Virus record (IMG/VR): IMGVR_UViG_2675903413_000006
Location: 1-19,819 of that record
DNA length: 19,819 nt
Direction: 5' to 3' (one strand)
DNA from: a virus
Lineage: Duplodnaviria; Heunggongvirae; Uroviricota; Caudoviricetes
Below the pieces are notes generated by a model. That model searched no databases and was not told the origin of the DNA. It was given only the letters and a program-made list of their open reading frames with translations. Shown in pieces: positions 2,023-11,795 of this stretch (within the stretch, counting starts at the first letter, position 1; every line of letters starts with the position of its first letter). The position numbers were made by a program, and so were the translations under genes.

Positions 2023-3153
2023 TCACAACGCTACTTTGCTCCATCCCTTGCCTCGATCGTCATGATAACGATCGGTTTGTTGTTGTGTTTTATGACCAAG
2101 TAATTTTTGTGTATTTAAACCCTGTTCTTTATACAAACGTTCTGATAAAGACCTTTGTTCATGAAATGTTGCGGGAGAACCTTCACCCCAGTCAATTCCT
2201 GCTAAATCTCTTGCTTTACTGAAATTCATAGTCAAGGTATTGGCTTTAACCTGTGCGCCGCGTTCAGCCTGTGAAGTAGTACGAAAAAAATGTACAAGGT
2301 ATTGGCTGACCGCATAGTCACGGCAACGGGCTACTACATTGCGCAAACTCCAGTTAATCGCATTGAGGCGCAGGGAAAGCGGGATGGCGATTTTGCTCCC
2401 GGTTTTTTCCTGAATGACATGCAGATGATCATCCCAAATATCGCTAAATTTCATACGTGAAATATCACCTAACCGCTGACCAGTAACCAAGGCTAGCAGC
2501 ATGGCATTTCCCATGTAACGATGGCTGGCATCTGCGATATCGAATATTTTTTTCCATTCTTCGAGGCTCAGCCTTTGTCGGGTAATTTTTCTTCTTGGCT
2601 GTTTAGTAGCTAATGCAGGGTTATAGCCAGGAGGTACTTCTCCGTAGTGCTGCGCCTCTTTGAAAACATCAATCAGGACGGAGCGAACTACTTGTGCCAT
2701 TCTCGGTTGCCCAGCGGCAATATACTCATCAAGTAATTGTGCAATATCCCGGACATCAACAGCTGAAATTAGCTTCAATCCTGCCCGTTCTCTAAGTAAG
2801 GAGACAGGTTTGGCTTTCTGCTTGTAGGTGTTGAGCTTTATATCACCACTTTTCAGCCTGTCATTCTGGATCGCTTGATAGCGATCTAACCAAGTTGACG
2901 TTGTGATTGCTTTCCCTTTGCTGGTTGCGATCCTGTCACTGATGGCCAGAATCTGCCGGGTTCTTTGTTCAGCCAGGCGCGTATTGGCTTCAGTGGCAAT
3001 AGCGATAGCTTCAGTTTCGTTTGTTCCCAAAGCATGGAATTTCCCTGTTATTGGATGCTTATACCGCCAATAGACTTTATTTACCTTTCGGCTATAAAGC
3101 GGATATAAGTTAGGGACTGAAACATTATTCTTACGCGGTCTGGCTGCCATCAC
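2023..3153 (-). CDS. int: Tyrosine recombinase, lambda Int family integrase
   Basis: 376-aa ORF. N-terminal PNLY...ITGK and C-terminal LVTGQR...FHEQRSLSERLY...LLGHK...DRYHDDRGKGWSKV match the lambda Int layout including the catalytic Tyr region. The true start may be the second Met. Confidence 0.9.
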   Translation of the reverse strand: MMAARPRKNNVSVPNLYPLYSRKVNKVYWRYKHPITGKFHALGTNETEAIAIATEANTRLAEQRTRQILAISDRIATSKGKAITTSTWLDRYQAIQNDRLKSGDIKLNTYKQKAKPVSLLRERAGLKLISAVDVRDIAQLLDEYIAAGQPRMAQVVRSVLIDVFKEAQHYGEVPPGYNPALATKQPRRKITRQRLSLEEWKKIFDIADASHRYMGNAMLLALVTGQRLGDISRMKFSDIWDDHLHVIQEKTGSKIAIPLSLRLNAINWSLRNVVARCRDYAVSQYLVHFFRTTSQAERGAQVKANTLTMNFSKARDLAGIDWGEGSPATFHEQRSLSERLYKEQGLNTQKLLGHKTQQQTDRYHDDRGKGWSKVAL

Positions 3154-3376
3154 TCAAAATCCGTTGCAAAAGTAATGAGTCATTTTTCTTAATTACTGGT
3201 GTTACCAGCTCTCCAACTAACTCGGCGTCCTCACGCACTCGCCATAACCGACCTTGTTTCATTGCCGGTGGACAAAACAAATTCTGCTTAGCATAACGAC
3301 GCAACGTGGAAACGCTTGGAGGATTACTTCTGTATTTTTCAGAAGCCCATTCTTCAAGAGTTAACATTTGAAGCAT
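3131..3376 (-). CDS. xis: Excisionase (Xis-like)
   Basis: 81-aa ORF just upstream of int, overlapping its start by 23 nt as lambda xis/int do; MLTLEEWA...RRYAKQNLFCPPAMKQGRLWRV resembles the lambda Xis winged-helix region. Confidence 0.8.
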   Translation of the reverse strand: MLQMLTLEEWASEKYRSNPPSVSTLRRYAKQNLFCPPAMKQGRLWRVREDAELVGELVTPVIKKNDSLLLQRILSDGSQTA

Positions 3377-3870: not shown

Positions 3871-4305
3871 ATGTCCGGTAATATCTATACGCTGTACAAA
3901 TCCCACTGTGAAAATGTTGGAAAGTATCGGGGCATTGAAATCAGTGGGGTAGTGTCATCAGTCGAAATAAGCAAAGTTGAATCAAGGGCAACATTACTTA
4001 CTCTTCTGGACCTTGTCTTACATGAGCACCGGAAGAAATTCGGCACTCCCTATAATCAGTTGAATGGGAAAAAAGCTCTGGTTCACCTTATTCTGATGAA
4101 GCATCACTGGATGCCAAAACAGATTAATGAGATGAAATTTGATGAACTTCTTCTTTCAATTCAGGATGAACTCACGCTTGATAAAATAAGCGTAACCGCC
4201 CAGAAATTTTTAGATTATCGAGACTGGAGATCACAAATTCATCACTTTGATGATTTTGACGAAAATGAATGGGATCCTAATTTGTCTGCACAATATCTAA
4301 AGTAA
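3871..4305 (+). CDS. Hypothetical phage early-region protein (144 aa)
   Basis: ORF with a purine-rich stretch (aaaaggaaaagaa) before the ATG; no recognisable motif. Confidence 0.5.
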   Translation: MSGNIYTLYKSHCENVGKYRGIEISGVVSSVEISKVESRATLLTLLDLVLHEHRKKFGTPYNQLNGKKALVHLILMKHHWMPKQINEMKFDELLLSIQDELTLDKISVTAQKFLDYRDWRSQIHHFDDFDENEWDPNLSAQYLK

Positions 4306-4483
4306 CATCCTGTGATAAAACCGTGATTTCCTGATCCAGTTTTTTTAAGGAGTCTATTGTTTCCTGTCGATAAGACAGCACTTCACGAAGCTGGTTTATA
4401 GCTGCCAGCTTCTTTGCCATCCACTCGTAAATTTCCTCATTTGTGTATCCGGGCGCGACGATTTTTGGTTCTGTTTTGTGCAT
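4277..4483 (-). CDS. Hypothetical small protein (68 aa), first gene of the leftward early transcript
   Basis: Strong RBS (GGAGG 7 nt upstream of the ATG on the minus strand); sits downstream of the putative OL-like GGTACAT sites. Its 3' end is convergent with the 3871 gene. Confidence 0.5.
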   Translation of the reverse strand: MHKTEPKIVAPGYTNEEIYEWMAKKLAAINQLREVLSYRQETIDSLKKLDQEITVLSQDVTLDIVQTN

Positions 4484-4542
4484 TTCACACCTCCTCAAGT
4501 TATCAGTTACTTGTTGATGGGGACCAGATTGTTAAAGAGCTA

Positions 4543-4566
4543 AGCGTCCTGTAGGGCGCTTTTTTG
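4543..4566 (+). terminator. Rho-independent terminator-like hairpin (7 bp stem with one G-U pair, 4-nt loop) followed by TTTTTG
   Basis: AGCGTCC-tgta-GGGCGCT then a T-run on the plus strand; there is no T-run on the minus-strand side. Confidence 0.5.
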
Positions 4567-4717
4567 TTGCTAACGAATCATCCTGGACTTCATATGCCCC
4601 AGGCGGCTACTTCGTGGGCGTCCTGTCTGTTTGTTGTTTCTCTTTGGTACATTATGTATCTCAAGGGTACATTGTCAAGTATAAAAAAACCTGCCGAAGC
4701 AGGTTCATAAACATTGA

Positions 4718-5392
4718 TTAGGCTTTGATTTTGTATCTTCTTGGTTTTCCTGAGAAAATCACAGTTCCAATTATAGAGCAATTACCGTTGATCTTAATGT
4801 AAGGCTCAGGCCAGTTTGGGTTTAACGCTTTGAGATAACGCTGTGTCCCATCTTCTATCAACCTTTTGAAGGTGGTTTCACCTGTATCGTGCATCAATGC
4901 AATAACGTCGTCACCGTGGCAGGCAGGTACTTCAGGATCGACAAAAATCATGTCTCCCGGGCGGTACTCATCAATCATTGAATCACCTATCACCCGCAAG
5001 ATATAAGTCATTTCCCCACAGGGTACAGGGCAGGGATACGTTTCTGCTGTGCTCAAATCAACCTCAGAATATCCAACTTCTTTCCATGCTCCGGCCTGTA
5101 CCCATGATATGACAGGGACTAATGTGATTTGTTTATTAGTGATTGAAACATCAGGTTTTTTTGTGATGTTCGTTGTCTGGTGTTCTTGATCGAGCCATCC
5201 GACAGGCAGGTCGAAACATTTTTCGATGTGTCGTGCCATGCTGTCACCGATATTTTTAGTAGCACCATCTCCCATAAACCTGCTGGTCTGGGTTGGCTCG
5301 CGATCAATCATAGTGGCAAAGGAAGAATTCCCGCCAACACCATCTCTCAGTTTTCTGGCGTTAGACCGCCGGATGTCATGGATTGTTTTCAT
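4718..5392 (-). CDS. cI: Phage repressor, CI-like, with a C-terminal S24 (LexA-like) autopeptidase domain
   Basis: C-terminal VIGDSM (Ser nucleophile) and TFKRL (Lys) are the S24 Ser/Lys dyad; divergent from a cro-like gene with an operator palindrome between them. Confidence 0.85.
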   Translation of the reverse strand: MKTIHDIRRSNARKLRDGVGGNSSFATMIDREPTQTSRFMGDGATKNIGDSMARHIEKCFDLPVGWLDQEHQTTNITKKPDVSITNKQITLVPVISWVQAGAWKEVGYSEVDLSTAETYPCPVPCGEMTYILRVIGDSMIDEYRPGDMIFVDPEVPACHGDDVIALMHDTGETTFKRLIEDGTQRYLKALNPNWPEPYIKINGNCSIIGTVIFSGKPRRYKIKA

Positions 5393-5407
5393 AACGAAAT
5401 TAAAACC

Positions 5408-5428
5408 CTTGTACCGTTAAGGTACAAG
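5408..5428. promoter_or_regulatory. Operator: perfect palindrome CTTGTACC-gttaa-GGTACAAG in the cI/cro divergent promoter region; a further GGTACA half-site lies at 5471-5476
   Basis: 21-bp perfect dyad 16 nt upstream of the cI start codon and about 55 nt upstream of cro. Confidence 0.7.
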
Positions 5429-5482
5429 TATCTTGAAGGTTCATTTCAATCATGTAATATGTATACCGGAGGTACATATTGT

Positions 5483-5683
5483 ATGAAAGCGTATTGGGAC
5501 TCTTTAACCAAAGAACAGCAGGGCGAGTTGGCCGGAAAAGTTGGCTCAACACCTGGCTACTTACGGCTGGTTTTCAATGGCTATAAAAAAGCCAGTTTTG
5601 TGCTGGCTAAAAAACTTGAGCAATGCACGTCAGGTGCAATTACGAAATCTGACTTAAGACCGGATATCTATCCGAAAGATTAG
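5483..5683 (+). CDS. cro: Cro-like HTH regulator
   Basis: 66-aa product; GGAGG RBS 11 nt upstream; divergent from cI. The 5' part of the longer 5180-5683 ORF overlaps cI antisense and is rejected. Confidence 0.7.
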   Translation: MKAYWDSLTKEQQGELAGKVGSTPGYLRLVFNGYKKASFVLAKKLEQCTSGAITKSDLRPDIYPKD

Positions 5684-5714
5684 CAGAACACTTTCAATTT
5701 TTAACCACAGAACG

Positions 5715-6284
5715 ATGAGGCTAATCGTGGGTAAGCATCACTGGAAAATAGAAAAACAGCCTGAGTGGTACGTGAAAGCTGTCAGAAAAACTATCGCGGC
5801 GTTGCCGGGTGGTTACGCTGAAGCGGCTGACTGGCTCGATGTAACAGAAAACGCTTTATTCAACCGCCTTCGTGCAGATGGCGATCAGATTTTCCCGCTG
5901 GGATGGGCAATGGTTTTACAGCGTGCTGGTGGCACTCACTTCATTGCTGATGCTGTGGCGCAGTCTGCAAATGGCGTCTTTGTGTCTCTTCCTGACGTCG
6001 AGGATGTGGACAACGCCGATATTAACCAGCGTCTGCTGGAAGTCATTGAACAGATCGGCAGTTATTCAAAACAGATTCGTTCAGCAATCGAAGACGGTGT
6101 AGTGGAACCGCATGAGAAGACAGCAATTAACGACGAGCTGTACCTATCAATTTCGAAGCTGCAGGAGCATGCAGCACTTGTCTACAAAATTTTTTGCATT
6201 TCAGAAAGTAATGACGCCCGCGAGTGTGCAGCTCCGGGCGTCGTGGCGTCGATTGCTTCTGGTTGTGGAGAAACTAACGCATGA
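5715..6284 (+). CDS. Phage regulatory protein CII-like (phage 186 CII / CP76 family-like)
   Basis: Sits in the cII position downstream of cro; residue pattern ([27 protein letters not shown]...HFIADAVAQ) parallels 186 CII as recalled from memory. The start may be the GTG at 5727. Confidence 0.5.
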
Positions 6285-6466: not shown

Positions 6467-7119
6467 TGAGTAATAAATATTGCCAAGCGCTGGTGGAACT
6501 GCGGAACAAACCAGCCCATGAACTGAAGGAAGTGGGCGATCAGTGGCGCACGCCGGATAACATTTTCTGGGGAATTAACACCCTGTTTGGTCCGTTTGTT
6601 CTGGATCTGTTTACCGATGGTGATAACGCCAAATGTGCCGCGTATTACACGGCGGAAGACAACGCGCTGGCGCATGACTGGTCAGAACGTCTTGCGGAGC
6701 TTAAAGGTGCTGCCTTTGGTAATCCCCCATATAGCCGCGCCAGTCAGCATGAGGGGCAATACATCACCGGCATGCGTTACATCATGAAGCATGCCAGTGC
6801 CATGCGTGATAAAGGCGGGCGCTATGTTTTCCTGATCAAAGCTGCCACCAGCGAAGTGTGGTGGCCGGAAGATGCAGATCATATTGCTTTTATTCGCGGG
6901 CGTATTGGTTTTGAACTGCCTGCCTGGTTTATCCCGAAGGATGAGAAGCAGGTGCCGACAGACGCTTTCTTCGCTGGTGCTATTGCTGTTTTCGACAAGA
7001 CCTGGAAGGGACCGGCAATCAGCTACATCGGGCGCGATGAACTTGAGGCATGTGGTGAGGCCTTTCTGGCGCAGGTTCGCCAGCAGGCAGAAAAACTGGT
7101 CAGGGAGATGGCGGCATGA
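6466..7119 (+). CDS. Phage N6-adenine DNA methyltransferase (Dam-like)
   Basis: Catalytic NPPY motif (AFGNPPYSR) and typical phage Dam-family context in the nin-like region. Confidence 0.8.
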   Translation: MSNKYCQALVELRNKPAHELKEVGDQWRTPDNIFWGINTLFGPFVLDLFTDGDNAKCAAYYTAEDNALAHDWSERLAELKGAAFGNPPYSRASQHEGQYITGMRYIMKHASAMRDKGGRYVFLIKAATSEVWWPEDADHIAFIRGRIGFELPAWFIPKDEKQVPTDAFFAGAIAVFDKTWKGPAISYIGRDELEACGEAFLAQVRQQAEKLVREMAA

Positions 7120-7442
7120 CGACGTTAACTCAATGCCAGCAGCAGGTGCTGGATATGCTGATTTCTTATCAGAAAGAACGTGGCTTCCCGCCAACCAATC
7201 AGGAGGTGGCAACCATGCTGGGATACCGTTCAGTGAATGCAGCGGTGGAGCATCTTCGCGCACTGGAGAAAAAAGGCGTCATCACGATAAAGCGTGGCGT
7301 GGCCCGGGGCATCACGCTTCATACCGCGGTGAAGGACGACGACAGCGAGGCGGTCGGGATTATCCGCTCACTGCTTGCCGGTGAGGAAAACGCAAGGCTG
7401 CGTGCAACCCACTGGTTACATGAGAGGGGCCTGAAAGTATGA
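7116..7442 (+). CDS. LexA N-terminal DNA-binding-domain protein lacking the S24 peptidase domain
   Basis: 108 aa; MTTLTQCQQQVLDMLISYQKERGFPPTNQEVATMLGYRSVNAAVEHLRALEKKGVITIKRGVARGITL aligns by eye with the E. coli LexA N-terminal domain. No Ser/Lys peptidase region follows. Confidence 0.75.
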   Translation: MTTLTQCQQQVLDMLISYQKERGFPPTNQEVATMLGYRSVNAAVEHLRALEKKGVITIKRGVARGITLHTAVKDDDSEAVGIIRSLLAGEENARLRATHWLHERGLKV

Positions 7443-7834
7443 AGCTGATCCTGCCTTTTCCGCCCAGCGTGAACACGTACTGGCGACACCCCAACAAAGG
7501 GGCGTTTGCTGGTAAGAGCCTGATAAGCGCGGCGGGGCGAAAATTCCAGAGCGCGGCGTGCGCAGCAATAGTTGAGCAGTTACGTCGTCTGCCGAAACCA
7601 ACGTCGGCACCTGCTTCAGTGGAGATCGTGTTGTTTCCTCCGGATAACAGGATCCGCGATCTGGACAACTATAACAAGGCGCTGTTTGACGCCCTGACCC
7701 ACGCGGGGGTGTGGGAAGACGACAGTCAGGTGAAAAGAATGCTGGTGGAGTGGGGACCGGTTATCCCGGAGGGGAAGGTCGAGATCACTATCAGTAAGTA
7801 CGAAAAAGCGAGTTGCAAATTAGCAACTCGGTAA
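7439..7834 (+). CDS. rusA: Holliday junction resolvase RusA
   Basis: 131 aa; LPFPPSVNTYWRH...RDLDNYNKALFDALTHAGVWEDDSQV...VEITI matches the RusA signature. Confidence 0.85.
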   Translation: MKLILPFPPSVNTYWRHPNKGAFAGKSLISAAGRKFQSAACAAIVEQLRRLPKPTSAPASVEIVLFPPDNRIRDLDNYNKALFDALTHAGVWEDDSQVKRMLVEWGPVIPEGKVEITISKYEKASCKLATR

Positions 7835-7879
7835 CGGAATTGAGCAACACCCTAAATTTGGGTATTACCTCGTTAAAGA

Positions 7880-7899
7880 TACTGTATTTATGAACAGTG
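7880..7899. promoter_or_regulatory. LexA (SOS) box TACTGTATTTATGAACAGTG upstream of the KilA-N gene
   Basis: CTGT-N8-ACAG with an AT-rich spacer, matching the enterobacterial LexA consensus; about 100 bp upstream of the ATG at 7997. Confidence 0.7.
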
Positions 7900-7996
7900 T
7901 ATCCTTGATAACTATTAAAAATCGCAGTAAGTTCATCCTGCATCAACGAAAAGGGAGTGCAGTCCCGCTCGTGGATAAAAATTTGTGGAGAAACCA

Positions 7997-8812
7997 ATGA
8001 ATCAGTTGCTTGTAATTGATGGCGTTTCTGTGCGCCAGTACTTCGAATCTAACTACTGTCTTAACGACCTTCAGAAAGCAGCTCTTCTTGCCGCTGGTGA
8101 GAATCGCTCCTCCCGTTCGCTGGAAGTTCACGAGTTTATGCGTCGTCCTGAAACGAAGGCTCTTGTGGAATTATTGGAAGAAGAAACTACGGGAGATTCC
8201 CGTAGTATTCCTGTCATCACCATTCAGGGGCGCAATGGTGGGACGTATGTCTGTAAAGAGCTGGTCTATGCATATGCAATGTGGATCAGCCCGGCATTCA
8301 GCTTAAAAGTGATACGTACTTTTGATGCGCTTCATAATTCATCACCAGAAGAAACCACATCCGACAAAATTAAATCCGGGGTCATTCTGCTTGAATCAGC
8401 AGCAAAGACTCTAAATCTGTCAAACTCCTCGAAACTTGGTGCATACCAGAAATTATCAAAGGTAGCTGGTCTTCCTGAACTTATGCCGATCTATGCCATT
8501 GATGCACCTGCTGATGCGCCAGATGGTTCAAGCCGCCCTACGCTGTCGCTGAGTGCACTGCTGAAACAGTATGGTATCCGCCTTACGGCTAATCAGGCAT
8601 ATCACCAGATGGTGAAGCTGGGGATCGTCGAGCAGCGCGAACGATACAGCCGTACCTCGATTAACAACATCAAAAAATTCTGGTCGCTGACAGCGAAAGG
8701 CTGCATGTTCGGCAAGAACATCACCAGTCCTGCAAATCCGCGCGAGACGCAGCCGCACTTCTTCGAATCCCGATTCCCTGAGCTGTTAAAGCTGCTCAAT
8801 ACCGTTCATTGA
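7997..8812 (+). CDS. KilA-N domain protein, putative SOS-controlled antirepressor
   Basis: N-terminal KilA-N-like segment (GTYVCKELVYAYAMWISPAFSLKVIR); GGAG RBS; LexA box in its promoter region. Confidence 0.7.
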   Translation: MNQLLVIDGVSVRQYFESNYCLNDLQKAALLAAGENRSSRSLEVHEFMRRPETKALVELLEEETTGDSRSIPVITIQGRNGGTYVCKELVYAYAMWISPAFSLKVIRTFDALHNSSPEETTSDKIKSGVILLESAAKTLNLSNSSKLGAYQKLSKVAGLPELMPIYAIDAPADAPDGSSRPTLSLSALLKQYGIRLTANQAYHQMVKLGIVEQRERYSRTSINNIKKFWSLTAKGCMFGKNITSPANPRETQPHFFESRFPELLKLLNTVH

Positions 8813-10772: not shown

Positions 10773-11795
10773 TCACATCAAATCTATCATTTTCACAACA
10801 AACTCTAGTTCAATTTTAACATATGAATCCTTCAGGCGCGAATTAAAGTTATCGATAATGCTTTTCTTAATAAATGTTTTTTCTAAATTATTAAGATTGA
10901 TGTTTGAGGTTTTGAAATCAACCTGCCTTGGTTTATTTGTTTCAGGATCTTGGAATTTAACCTTTAATTTATCATAACCACCATTCATTTTTTTATTGAA
11001 ATGAGATGCTACATTTTTAATCCATCCAATAACATTGTCACCATGATTTGGAAGTAATTTTAATGTACTTTCAGTCGGAATGTAAGGTGAATTAACATCA
11101 GGAGCATTAATTGTTCCGAATTGATCCTTGACTAATATGACATCTGATAATCCTTTTTGGCTTATTTTATTAAAAAGCTCCTTGTCTAACATTCCTGTAA
11201 ATTCAAATATTGGTTTGTATCGTATTTTTACTTCTTTTTTTGATGTTGCAGAAATAACGTTAGTTGGATGTTTTGCGGTAAATAAGTCTTCATTGTCTTT
11301 CGCCACTTCAAAGAGAATTTTGTCTAAAAAACTATTTAACCGGGCCGTAGATACACCTGGGGTAGATGTACAAATCATATCATAGGTTCTTTTATTTCCA
11401 TTTAATGATATGACAACATAGGTAGAAACTTCATAGCCTTCACCTTGTTCATATTTTGGTTGGATTTCAACGCGTTCATTAGTATTTATATTTTTTACAA
11501 CGGTAGTACTTCCATTTTTATCAACACTATTAATAAGAAGGACAATATGCGTGGGTGAGTTATCTGGAAGTAAAGGATAAAGTTGTACATCTTGGAGAGT
11601 AACTACAATATTCCCAGAATCATATGAATGAACGAGTCCCTTTTGTTTAACAATCAATGGGGCAAGCATGTACATTTCCGGAACAGGACATATACACTGG
11701 GCTTTTACCTCTTGTGTTGCCTTGGTTCTAAACTTTGTGTCAATGGTCAGACTATGATGAGTAACGAGTCTTTCGCTAGCATTTAATTTTGCCAT
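10773..11795 (-). CDS. Hypothetical soluble protein (340 aa); first gene of the AT-rich cargo operon
   Basis: Long AT-rich ORF antisense to the phage late genes; no catalytic motif recognised (no CD-NTase GS...DxD, no YADD, no Walker A, no TIR/SIR2 signature seen). Confidence 0.6.
   Translation of the reverse strand: MAKLNASERLVTHHSLTIDTKFRTKATQEVKAQCICPVPEMYMLAPLIVKQKGLVHSYDSGNIVVTLQDVQLYPLLPDNSPTHIVLLINSVDKNGSTTVVKNINTNERVEIQPKYEQGEGYEVSTYVVISLNGNKRTYDMICTSTPGVSTARLNSFLDKILFEVAKDNEDLFTAKHPTNVISATSKKEVKIRYKPIFEFTGMLDKELFNKISQKGLSDVILVKDQFGTINAPDVNSPYIPTESTLKLLPNHGDNVIGWIKNVASHFNKKMNGGYDKLKVKFQDPETNKPRQVDFKTSNINLNNLEKTFIKKSIIDNFNSRLKDSYVKIELEFVVKMIDLM

Follow-up and report, generated by a model that had tools for sequence, protein, structure and literature searches.

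Operators and promoters of a probable lambda-type switch in the e14/SfV immunity region

Gene content and identity of the region

The window, a 19,819-nucleotide stretch of a tailed-phage record (IMG/VR IMGVR_UViG_2675903413_000006), carries a cI-type repressor gene and a cro-type gene that diverge across a 90-bp gap, cI on the minus strand and cro on the plus strand. A leftward open reading frame occupies 4277-4483, and downstream of cro comes a CII-like gene of the Phage_CP76 family. RefSeq gene names in the region are ymfK and ymfT. The two divergent genes and the end of the cI transcription unit are as follows:

4687-4706, minus strand: intrinsic terminator for cI, with the hairpin GAACCTGC-TTCG-GCAGGTTT and then a T run
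4718-5392, minus strand: cI-type repressor, YmfK/CohE of e14, 224 amino acids, with an N-terminal four-helix helix-turn-helix (HTH) domain and a C-terminal S24 domain
5483-5683, plus strand: Cro-type HTH protein, YmfT/CroE of e14, 66 amino acids, phrog_35

The repressor matched Peptidase_S24 in Pfam (E = 1.5e-26). Its best PDB match in the C-terminal domain was that of lambda CI (31-37% identical), LexA and UmuD were also matched, and the predicted catalytic features (the Ala100-Gly101 cleavage site, Ser138 and Lys176) were conserved in the alignment. RefSeq annotates the protein as 'LexA family', a similarity limited to the S24 domain. Because the Pfam search of the N-terminal domain returned no HTH family, this domain was assigned via PDB sequence matches and an AF2 model, which places the HTH at helices 22-28 and 33-40. 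The closest solved relative of the N-terminal DNA-binding domain is the Rep protein of Salmonella phage SPC32H (PDB 5D50), with 35-37% identity over 75-79 aligned columns and an rmsd of 2.0-4.4 Å. This similarity is confined to query residues 1-76, whereas the S24 domain matches lambda CI, LexA and UmuD. SPC32H Rep is reportedly inactivated by an antirepressor, and its tetramers are said to bind DNA in an unusual way. The Cro-type protein gave weak Pfam matches to YdaS_toxin and HTH_3; its match to the YdaS family PF15943 reached 25.1 bits (E = 1.5e-5), under the gathering cut-off of 30, and some copies carry the RefSeq label 'YdaS family helix-turn-helix protein'.

The region is the known e14/SfV immunity region, in concept a standard lambdoid switch for which operators have been predicted before. 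A three-way alignment of positions 4560-5500 with e14, a cryptic prophage of E. coli K-12, and with Shigella phage SfV had 98% mean column identity, and megablast gave 99.1% identity to Shigella phage SfIV (window 4277-5720) and 98.5% to SfV. e14, SfV and SfIV have the genes, operators, promoters and terminator of the window, and only point differences set them apart here: the window differs from K-12 in the cro-proximal site (TGTATA versus TGTACA) and from SfV in the spacer of the perfect site (GTTAA versus GATAG). Left of approximately 4572 the window belongs to a different mosaic module from e14/SfV. Of 5,426 complete E. coli genomes, 1,324 (about one in four) contain the same region, and the immunity type is shared by serotype-converting phages of Shigella and by Stx2c- and Cdt-converting phages. 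In the GenBank record of SfV, a 'putative operator region' corresponds to window 5409-5477, and OL is not annotated. In an analysis of e14, Mehta, Casjens and Krishnaswamy (2004) reportedly state in the abstract that repressor and Cro binding sites were identified. A search of the accessible literature found no binding experiment (EMSA, footprint or ChIP) on YmfK or YmfT.

A 17-bp dyad recurs on both sides of cI

An earlier note on this DNA, made from its letters, had proposed that GGTACA(T) repeats and a palindrome around cI form the OR/OL operator set of the phage repressor. The motifs are where it described them: two copies of GGTACAT, at 4646-4652 and 4666-4672, in the interval that separates the leftward open reading frame from the cI stop (4718); GGTACA at 5471-5476, upstream of the cro ATG (5483); and the palindrome at 5408-5428. 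Both the motifs and the OR/OL reading stood, but the note had missed that each GGTACA(T) forms one half of a 17-bp dyad, TGTACC-N5-GGTACA, that a third OR site lies at 5427-5443, and that the region is that of e14/SfV. Five dyads flank cI, two downstream of it and three in the cI-cro gap. The operators and the promoters that they overlap are as follows:

4635-4651: OL2, weak putative leftward operator, TGTTTCTCTTTGGTACA, 2 mismatches
4655-4671: OL1, strong putative leftward operator, TGTATCTCAAGGGTACA, 1 mismatch
4651-4678, minus strand: PL, leftward early promoter, -35 TTGACA (4678-4673), 16-nt spacer, -10 CATAAT (4656-4651)
5408-5428: cI-proximal putative operator in the OR3-like position, core TGTACCGTTAAGGTACA at 5410-5426, 0 mismatches
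5427-5443: central weak putative operator in the OR2-like position, AGTATCTTGAAGGTTCA, 3 mismatches
5460-5476: cro-proximal putative operator in the OR1-like position, TGTATACCGGAGGTACA, 2 mismatches (1 in K-12 e14)
5392-5427, minus strand: PRM, cI maintenance promoter, -35 TTGTAC (5427-5422), 17-nt spacer, -10 TTTAAT (5404-5399)
5433-5460, plus strand: PR, rightward early promoter, -35 TTGAAG (5433-5438), 16-nt spacer, -10 TAATAT (5455-5460)

The half-site and the dyad are both enriched. GGTACA occurs 16 times in the window versus 6.6 expected, and none of 200 shuffles reached 16. The motif search that the earlier note had suggested returned six dyads at ≤ 2 mismatches versus 0.49 expected, again a count that none of 200 shuffles reached. 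Palindromy as such is less informative: inverted repeats with 8-bp arms number 17 in the window and approximately 4 in shuffles, so a single one is unremarkable, and only two of the 17 fall in the switch region. As read from these sequences, the signal is the same half-site repeated in both regulatory regions and kept in relatives. No other repeated motif was found in the two regulatory regions, and an Rfam search of 4200-5800 returned only an rsmX match below threshold (E = 0.57).

Further candidates were rejected as operators. Inside cI, a dyad-like site (5011-5027) and a half-site (5097-5102) show no conservation at synonymous positions among relatives; the GGTACA copies there (5022 and 5097) encode PVP and WVQ within the conserved peptides CPVPCG and SWVQA, and are coincidental. 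A dyad with 2 mismatches at 11669-11685 is isolated, and chance would yield as many.

Putative operators overlap the promoters of both regulatory regions

Downstream of cI, OL1 fills the spacer between the -35 and -10 elements of PL, which scores 11/12 against consensus, while OL2 covers the last base of the -10 and the predicted start of PL (approximately 4644). The centers of OL1 and OL2 are 20 bp apart. Among relatives, OL1 has 0-1 mismatch in 22 of 22 distinct sequences with a freely variable spacer; OL2 retains its promoter-proximal half-site, and some loci have a weak or missing distal half. The weak sites (OL2 and the central site) range from 2 to 5 mismatches. The order of terminator, CTTGACAA, operator, TAA and operator is kept in 25 relatives. 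A hairpin and T run occur in relatives at the same place as the cI terminator, and the SfV and Ayreon records annotate a terminator. Folding of the PL leader RNA showed nothing unusual (z = 0.05).

In the cI-cro gap, the cI-proximal operator is the core of the palindrome CTTGTACC-GTTAA-GGTACAAG at 5408-5428. The earlier note had called this a perfect 21-bp palindrome, which is correct for its two perfect 8-bp arms but not for its 5-bp center, which is not symmetric. Fifteen bases (5393-5407) lie between the palindrome and the A of the cI ATG (5392), and the operator extends from -34 to -18 of PRM, over both the -35 hexamer and the spacer. PRM has 6 nt between its -10 and a start at the A of the ATG. 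Differential RNA-seq of E. coli K-12 mapped the e14 ymfK transcription start site to the first base of the start codon, giving a leader of 0 nt (PMC4681348), and K-12 e14 is identical to the window across the cI promoter in our alignment. From the published start site of this identical promoter, the cI mRNA is leaderless, which bears out the very short leader that the earlier note had proposed. The PRM elements are themselves conserved: 24 of 29 relatives have TnTAAT at 6-7 nt upstream of the ATG, and TTGTAC is kept too.

The two remaining dyads are tied to PR. The PR -35 sits within the spacer of the central operator, whose center lies at -43 from the PRM start; this operator abuts the cI-proximal site, the two being 17 bp apart center to center and on roughly opposite helical faces. 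The cro-proximal operator covers the start of PR (predicted at approximately 5466-5468) and has the cro Shine-Dalgarno sequence GGAGG (5468-5472) embedded in it. Its symmetry continues into the flanks as AATATGTA ... TACATATT (5456-5480). Although PR scored under threshold in a generic promoter scan, its pattern of TTGnnG, 16-17 nt and TAATAT, CATAAT or TATAAT recurs in nearly all of 29 sequences (28 relatives and the window), and in every one the cro-proximal operator begins on the final T of the -10.

The dyads are conserved with the repressor

We compared 31 loci, from E. coli to Halomonadaceae, whose repressors are 100% to 43% identical to that of the window. The earlier note had staked its reading on the motifs being conserved in phages with a homologous repressor, and dyads were present at fixed offsets: -84, -51 and -34 upstream of cI, and +46 and +66 downstream of it, just past the cI terminator. 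Half-sites were high in information content, with 5-bp spacers near zero. The cI-proximal site was perfect in 17 of 27 distinct sequences and had 1 mismatch in a further 9, its spacers being free to vary. Relatives also keep the variant half-sites of the central site, TGAACC and GGTACT, a conservation for which the PR -35 inside could account in part. The sigma-70 elements of PL, PR and PRM are overlapped by dyads, and the PR and PRM hexamers keep a fixed register with the operators across relatives.

The motif was also largely exclusive to these positions. Dyads at ≤ 1 mismatch numbered 87 in 4,278 regulatory positions versus 4 in 162,885 other positions of the 31 loci, and all 4 were distal PL/OL sites in Halomonadaceae, where the same PL/OL arrangement lies 0.9-1.5 kb further downstream. 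Around repressors of 35-43% identity with a different recognition helix, no dyad was found in 253,551 nt. Sister-clade loci with a different recognition helix have TGCTAA/TTAGCA repeats in the same architecture.

Comparison with characterized switches

The layout resembles that of lambda in several respects. In both, cI and cro diverge around three 17-bp dyads, and a further operator cluster lies over a leftward promoter past the end of the cI transcription unit. Both also have a repressor built of HTH and S24 domains, a leaderless cI with its -10 exactly 6 nt before the ATG, and a middle site (OR2) centered about -42/-43 from the PRM start. In contrast, the half-site sequence differs, OL has two sites rather than the three of lambda, and OR sites are spaced 17 and 33 bp center to center versus 23-24 bp for cooperating lambda sites. 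Unlike lambda, the window has its best consensus match over PRM rather than next to PR, its cro Shine-Dalgarno sequence inside an operator, and no rexAB-like genes between cI and OL. The N-terminal domain of its repressor resembles that of SPC32H Rep and has no detectable sequence similarity to that of lambda.

A second point of comparison is CP-933P of E. coli O157:H7 (PaaR2/YdaS/YdaT), which has the same lambdoid layout, a repressor gene likewise transcribed without a leader, a Cro of the YdaS family, to which the Cro-type protein here may also belong, and a CII analogue further downstream (PMC8630535). It also has repeated palindromic operators over PRM, PR and a PL-like promoter, which were shown by EMSA, footprinting and reporters (PMC8630535). 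However, the CP-933P operator consensus, GTTTAGTAA, repeats in four 18-bp palindromes, PaaR2 is of a different repressor family linked to a toxin-antitoxin pair, and the CII analogue is YdaT rather than a member of the Phage_CP76 family.

Proposed switch and alternative explanations

Position, conservation pattern, specificity and promoter overlap all point to the OR/OL reading. We therefore consider it very probable that these operators and promoters together control a lysis-lysogeny switch of lambda type with e14/SfV immunity. A dimer of YmfK/CohE would bind 17-bp dyads of the form TGTACC-N5-G(G/A)TACA. Bound repressor would keep PR and PL off and, on the perfect site over PRM, would limit its own synthesis. 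The Cro protein (YmfT) would use the same sites and shut PRM first. Upon DNA damage, RecA-stimulated cleavage at Ala100-Gly101 would lead to prophage induction. In this scheme we infer how proteins and sites pair up, in what order the sites fill, any cooperativity or looping, and autocleavage.

Several points fit the scheme less readily. The central site and OL2 are weak, the abutting of the cI-proximal and central sites is unlike the spacing of cooperating lambda sites, and e14 induction by DNA damage has been put down to weak LexA boxes (PMC11228462). The closest match to the consensus lies over PRM and not PR, the opposite of the affinity order of lambda repressor. Either negative autoregulation is strong, or a consensus match is no guide to repressor affinity. 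A bolder possibility, which we regard as rather doubtful, is that the e14/SfV operator hierarchy is inverted relative to lambda, with the perfect site in PRM, PR sites that are deliberately sub-consensus and keep their deviations, and one operator specificity unchanged from Enterobacterales to Halomonadaceae.

We next considered whether the dyads might be read by another protein. The main alternative is that they are recognized mainly or only by the Cro-like YmfT while the CI-like repressor recognizes something else or, in a variant, that only the PRM palindrome is a dedicated Cro site. Conservation alone cannot tell CI from Cro, because in 29 of the 31 loci the motif comes together with a divergent cro homologue. 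The perfect site also lies over PRM, where lambda Cro binds first, and the Cro of CP-933P, YdaS, binds PRM at low concentration (PMC8630535). However, CI and Cro have operators in common in every characterized lambdoid switch, the footprints of PaaR2 and YdaS overlap in CP-933P (PMC8630535), and the two regulatory regions hold no second repeated motif. Moreover, OL1 and OL2 occlude PL, which a lysogen must repress and which is the repressor's job, and in the sister clade the half-site changes along with the repressor recognition helix. On balance, reading of the dyads mainly or only by Cro appears unlikely.

The palindrome at 5408-5428 might instead act as RNA, forming a hairpin or weak intrinsic terminator on leftward transcripts from upstream, such as from a CII-dependent promoter. 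On the minus strand, a terminator scan flagged CTTGTACCTTAACGGTACAAG with GGTTTTAATT after it, and the gene downstream of cro is CII-like. Yet the stem is followed by a T run that relatives do not keep (they have, e.g., GGTACAGAATGTC or GGTACACAATGTT), the arms are invariant rather than covarying, and the same half-site occurs in imperfect dyads unable to form stable hairpins. The cI maintenance transcript lacks the palindrome, because the mapped cI start site lies downstream of it. With its T tract not conserved and the mapped start site beyond it, the palindrome was rejected as an intrinsic terminator, and we consider any such function on RNA very improbable.

Slightly less credible again is that the dyads are host LexA (SOS) boxes through which LexA directly regulates prophage induction. 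Lending this some weight, 17 of 22 e14 genes show lexA-dependent induction for which weak LexA boxes were invoked (PMC11228462), and RefSeq places the repressor in the 'LexA family'. However, the dyad has the form TGT-N11-ACA rather than the CTGT-N8-ACAG of the LexA box, to which positions 4600-5500 contained no match at ≤ 1 mismatch. In hosts that range from Enterobacterales to Halomonadaceae, the motif also follows the recognition helix of the phage repressor, and the likeness of the repressor to LexA is only in its S24 domain. Finally, although the window has 17 inverted repeats with 8-bp arms and its two cI-internal GGTACA copies are coding coincidences, recurrence of the motif by chance or composition has next to no probability and is refuted by enrichment in the window that 0 of 200 shuffles matched, dyad positions constant over 31 loci while adjoining sequence is free to change, exclusivity, and the different-helix control.

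Implications for e14 and related phages

The DNA-damage response of e14 has been explained in other ways. In K-12 it was termed a putative 'YmfT regulon' (PMC10602906), and a 2024 study credited the induction of e14 by DNA damage to weak host LexA boxes rather than to the repressor (PMC11228462). The map of a probable lambda-type switch presented here, with five dyads, PL, PR, PRM and a leaderless cI, offers a simpler and directly testable hypothesis, in which YmfK would hold PR and PL off and RecA-stimulated autocleavage would remove YmfK. The map also delimits the group of phages expected to share immunity, and bears on the induction of toxin phages.

If the operator hierarchy were indeed inverted relative to lambda, lysogeny would depend on tight negative autoregulation, perhaps together with an OL-OR loop of 755 bp, and not on positive autoregulation as in lambda. 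An operator specificity that stayed constant from Enterobacterales to Halomonadaceae would be unusual for immunity regions. If true, the induction of K-12 e14 by DNA damage would reflect YmfK autocleavage at these operators, and not LexA boxes or a 'YmfT regulon'.

The dyads around cI are the repeat unit

By gene content, the window includes a lambdoid early region with the following genes:

2023-3376 (-): integrase/excisionase pair
4718-5392 (-): cI-type repressor gene
5483-5683 (+): cro-type gene
5715-6284 (+): CII-like gene (Pfam Phage_CP76)

An earlier note had interpreted a palindrome and GGTACA(T) repeats around cI as the OR/OL operators of the repressor. All of these motifs were recovered: the palindrome CTTGTACC-GTTAA-GGTACAAG at 5408-5428, 15 nt from the cI ATG, GGTACAT at 4646-4652 and 4666-4672, and GGTACA upstream of cro at 5471-5476. 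The palindrome had been described as perfect over 21 bp, which holds for both 8-bp arms but not for the asymmetric 5-bp centre. Because the window contains 17 inverted repeats with 8-bp arms, one such repeat is not significant by itself.

Repeat finding and pattern searches showed that every GGTACA is one half of a 17-bp dyad, TGTACC-N5-GGTACA. Two dyads lie downstream of cI (OL1 and OL2) and three in the cI-cro gap (the OR sites):

4635-4651: OL2, 2 mismatches to consensus
4655-4671: OL1, 1 mismatch
5410-5426: cI-proximal dyad, 0 mismatches
5427-5443: central dyad, 3 mismatches
5460-5476: cro-proximal dyad, 2 mismatches

Six dyads with at most two mismatches occur in the window versus 0.49 expected, a number reached by 0 of 200 shuffles, and four of the six fall in the two non-coding regions flanking cI. 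We rejected the other two matches, and a further half-site, as operators: the match at 5011-5027 and the half-site at 5097 lie inside cI (CPVPCG and SWVQA codons, respectively) with synonymous positions not kept in relatives, and the match at 11669 is isolated. OL1 and OL2 are spaced by 20 bp and the OR sites by 17 and 33 bp, the distances over which binding might be cooperative; a possible OL-OR loop would span 755 bp. By consensus match, the cI-proximal dyad and OL1 rank about equally, followed by the cro-proximal dyad and then the central dyad and OL2, which are again similar.

Each dyad is positioned on a promoter

Three promoters and a terminator were placed relative to the dyads:

4706-4687 (-): cI terminator, with PL directly after it
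4678-4651 (-): PL, leftward early promoter; -35 TTGACA (4678-4673), 16 nt, -10 CATAAT (4656-4651); score 11/12
5433-5460 (+): PR, rightward early (cro) promoter; -35 TTGAAG (5433-5438), 16 nt, -10 TAATAT (5455-5460)
5427-5399 (-): PRM, cI maintenance promoter; -35 TTGTAC (5427-5422, the outer part of the perfect dyad), 17 nt, -10 TTTAAT (5404-5399), then 6 nt to the ATG

OL1 fills the PL spacer, while OL2 starts at the last T of the PL -10 and covers the predicted PL start. The order terminator, CTTGACAA, dyad, TAA, dyad is kept in 25 relatives. The PR pattern (TTGnnG, 16-17 nt, TAATAT/CATAAT/TATAAT) was present in nearly all of 29 sequences compared (28 relatives and the window), and the cro-proximal dyad always began with the last T of the PR -10. 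The PR -35 lies inside the spacer of the central dyad, and the cro-proximal operator contains the cro Shine-Dalgarno sequence GGAGG (5468-5472).

The distance from TnTAAT to the cI ATG is 6 nt in 18 of 29 relatives and 7 nt in 6 more, and lambda PRM has the same spacing between -10 and ATG as PRM here. No Shine-Dalgarno sequence is present at the cI start. The very short cI leader proposed in the earlier note is confirmed by a dRNA-seq study in which ymfK, the e14 counterpart of cI, was one of five leaderless E. coli mRNAs, its transcript beginning with the start codon itself (leader 0 nt; PMC4681348 and supplement). The PRM region of the window is identical to that of K-12, and relative to this start site the perfect dyad spans positions -34 to -18 of PRM.

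The PL leader has further features. A block just past OL2, CAGGACGCCCACGAAGTAGCC (~4602-4625, -), is non-coding though conserved in many relatives across genera. An exact rrn-type boxA, GCTCTTTAACAA (4529-4540, -), directly follows a GC-rich hairpin (4542-4561), matching the boxB-then-boxA order of rrn antitermination sites. Neither an Rfam match nor unusual folding was found for the leader, and published analysis of SfIV found no N-like protein. On the opposite strand to the PL transcript, 4542-4561 (+) reads as a terminator-like hairpin with a T run. It would halt rightward transcripts that leave the 3871-4305 (+) gene and run antisense to ORF 4277-4483.

The dyads are conserved with the repressor and change with its recognition helix

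A protein search returned full-length homologues of the repressor that grade from 90% to ~40% identity and whose N-terminal domain is strongly conserved, and 80 loci were retrieved in a genome scan. The dyad was kept in all 31 loci with repressors 100-43% identical, at constant offsets from cI, which supports the OR/OL assignment; the earlier note had named missing conservation in phages with a homologous repressor as grounds for refuting it. Hosts of these relatives include E. coli, Klebsiella, Pantoea, Serratia, Rahnella, Erwinia, Proteus, Rosenbergiella, Salinicola and Halomonas. Upstream dyads occurred at -84 and -34 in 31/31 loci and at -51 in about half (≤ 2 mismatches); downstream dyads in Enterobacterales loci were at +46 and +66 past the cI stop codon. 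In stacked alignments the half-sites were near-invariant and the 5-bp spacers varied freely, which is what recognition of a dyad by a protein should leave behind. Covarying arms would be expected of an RNA hairpin. The readings as an RNA hairpin or terminator and as host LexA boxes were both rejected.

Dyads with at most one mismatch numbered 87 in 4,278 regulatory positions versus 4 in the other 162,885. All four outliers were from Halomonadaceae. They occupy the spacer of a TTGAC(G/C) promoter that is found 0.9-1.5 kb past cI, and represent a more distant OL, as in lambda, where OL lies beyond rexAB. This distance implies one or more genes inserted between cI and OL, comparable to rexAB. In these loci (L031-L034), the PL/OL module (TTGACG, dyad, -10) is at +1596 to +2216 from the cI start.

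As a negative control we used a sister clade of 49 loci whose repressors are 35-43% identical and carry the recognition helix NSSY[LI]SQVR in place of REPTQxSRxxG. TGTACC-N5-GGTACA was absent from their 253,551 nt; the architecture was kept with a different repeated half-site, TGCTAA/TTAGCA. The motif thus changes together with the DNA-reading helix. Chance recurrence was rejected on the basis of the shuffles, the site counts and this absence. A cro homologue is co-inherited with the dyads in 29/31 loci, so conservation alone does not separate CI, Cro or both as the reader; recognition by Cro only is unlikely. Sister-clade repressors are S24 proteins mostly from marine and sediment Gammaproteobacteria. 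Over the 110 nt preceding the repressor gene, their loci (L035-L083) retain the same layout: cro is divergent, a -10 element stands 6-8 nt ahead of the ATG, and a half-site overlaps the cro ribosome-binding site.

Proposed operation of the switch

Repressor dimers would occlude PL from OL1 and OL2, and PR from the central and cro-proximal dyads. The central dyad has its centre at -43 relative to the PRM start, the position of lambda OR2, and could therefore also activate PRM. Negative autoregulation should come from the perfect cI-proximal dyad, which lies across the PRM -35 and spacer. Cro is likely to use those same sites and to shut PRM first. In the ranking by consensus match, the best site is over PRM, unlike the preference of lambda repressor.

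The AF2 model of the repressor (mean pLDDT 80.5; 86-94 in the N-terminal domain) has four helices, with the helix-turn-helix at 22-28 and 33-40. The closest solved relative of the N-terminal domain is Salmonella phage SPC32H Rep (5D50; 35-37% identity over ~75 residues), and that of the C-terminal domain is lambda CI (31-37%). Residues 93-212 form a Peptidase_S24 domain (Pfam). Given the conservation of the Ala100-Gly101 site, Ser138 and Lys176, RecA-stimulated autocleavage would be expected.

Some 90-100 nt separate a near-consensus host LexA box, TACTGTATTTATGAACAGTG (7879-7898; core 7882-7897, a perfect CTGT-N8-ACAG), from the KilA-N domain gene that follows it (7985-8812, +; Pfam E = 1.3e-15). 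The gene could be of the antirepressor type and under LexA control, which would give the switch a second SOS input alongside repressor autocleavage. Just upstream of rusA (7439-7834) and this box, a 108-aa ORF (7116-7442, +) has only a LexA DNA-binding domain (LexA_DNA_bind, Pfam E = 2.9e-19; phrog_362) without the S24 cleavage domain, and may be a non-cleavable LexA mimic.

A widespread immunity type

The region is 99.1% and 98.5% identical to Shigella phages SfIV and SfV, respectively, and mean column identity was 98% in a three-way alignment of the window, e14 of E. coli K-12 and SfV. It is present in 1,324 of 5,426 complete E. coli genomes; the e14 genes are named ymfK (cohE), ymfT (croE) and ymfL. 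The 2004 abstract of Mehta et al. on e14 reportedly describes identified repressor and Cro binding sites. Our literature search found no paper with binding experiments on these sites. In SfV record U82619.2, the 'putative operator region' (26377-26445) corresponds exactly to window 5409-5477, with no OL annotated; the phage Ayreon record has an annotated PL promoter. Recent K-12 studies account for e14 induction in other ways, by a putative 'YmfT regulon' (PMC10602906) and by weak LexA boxes (PMC11228462).

The dyads are the operators of an immunity type that is known and very common, and public records already annotate them as putative. As lambdoid switches go, this one is ordinary, distinguished by having only two OL sites, a cro ribosome-binding site within an operator, its best site over PRM, and unusually deep conservation of one specificity.
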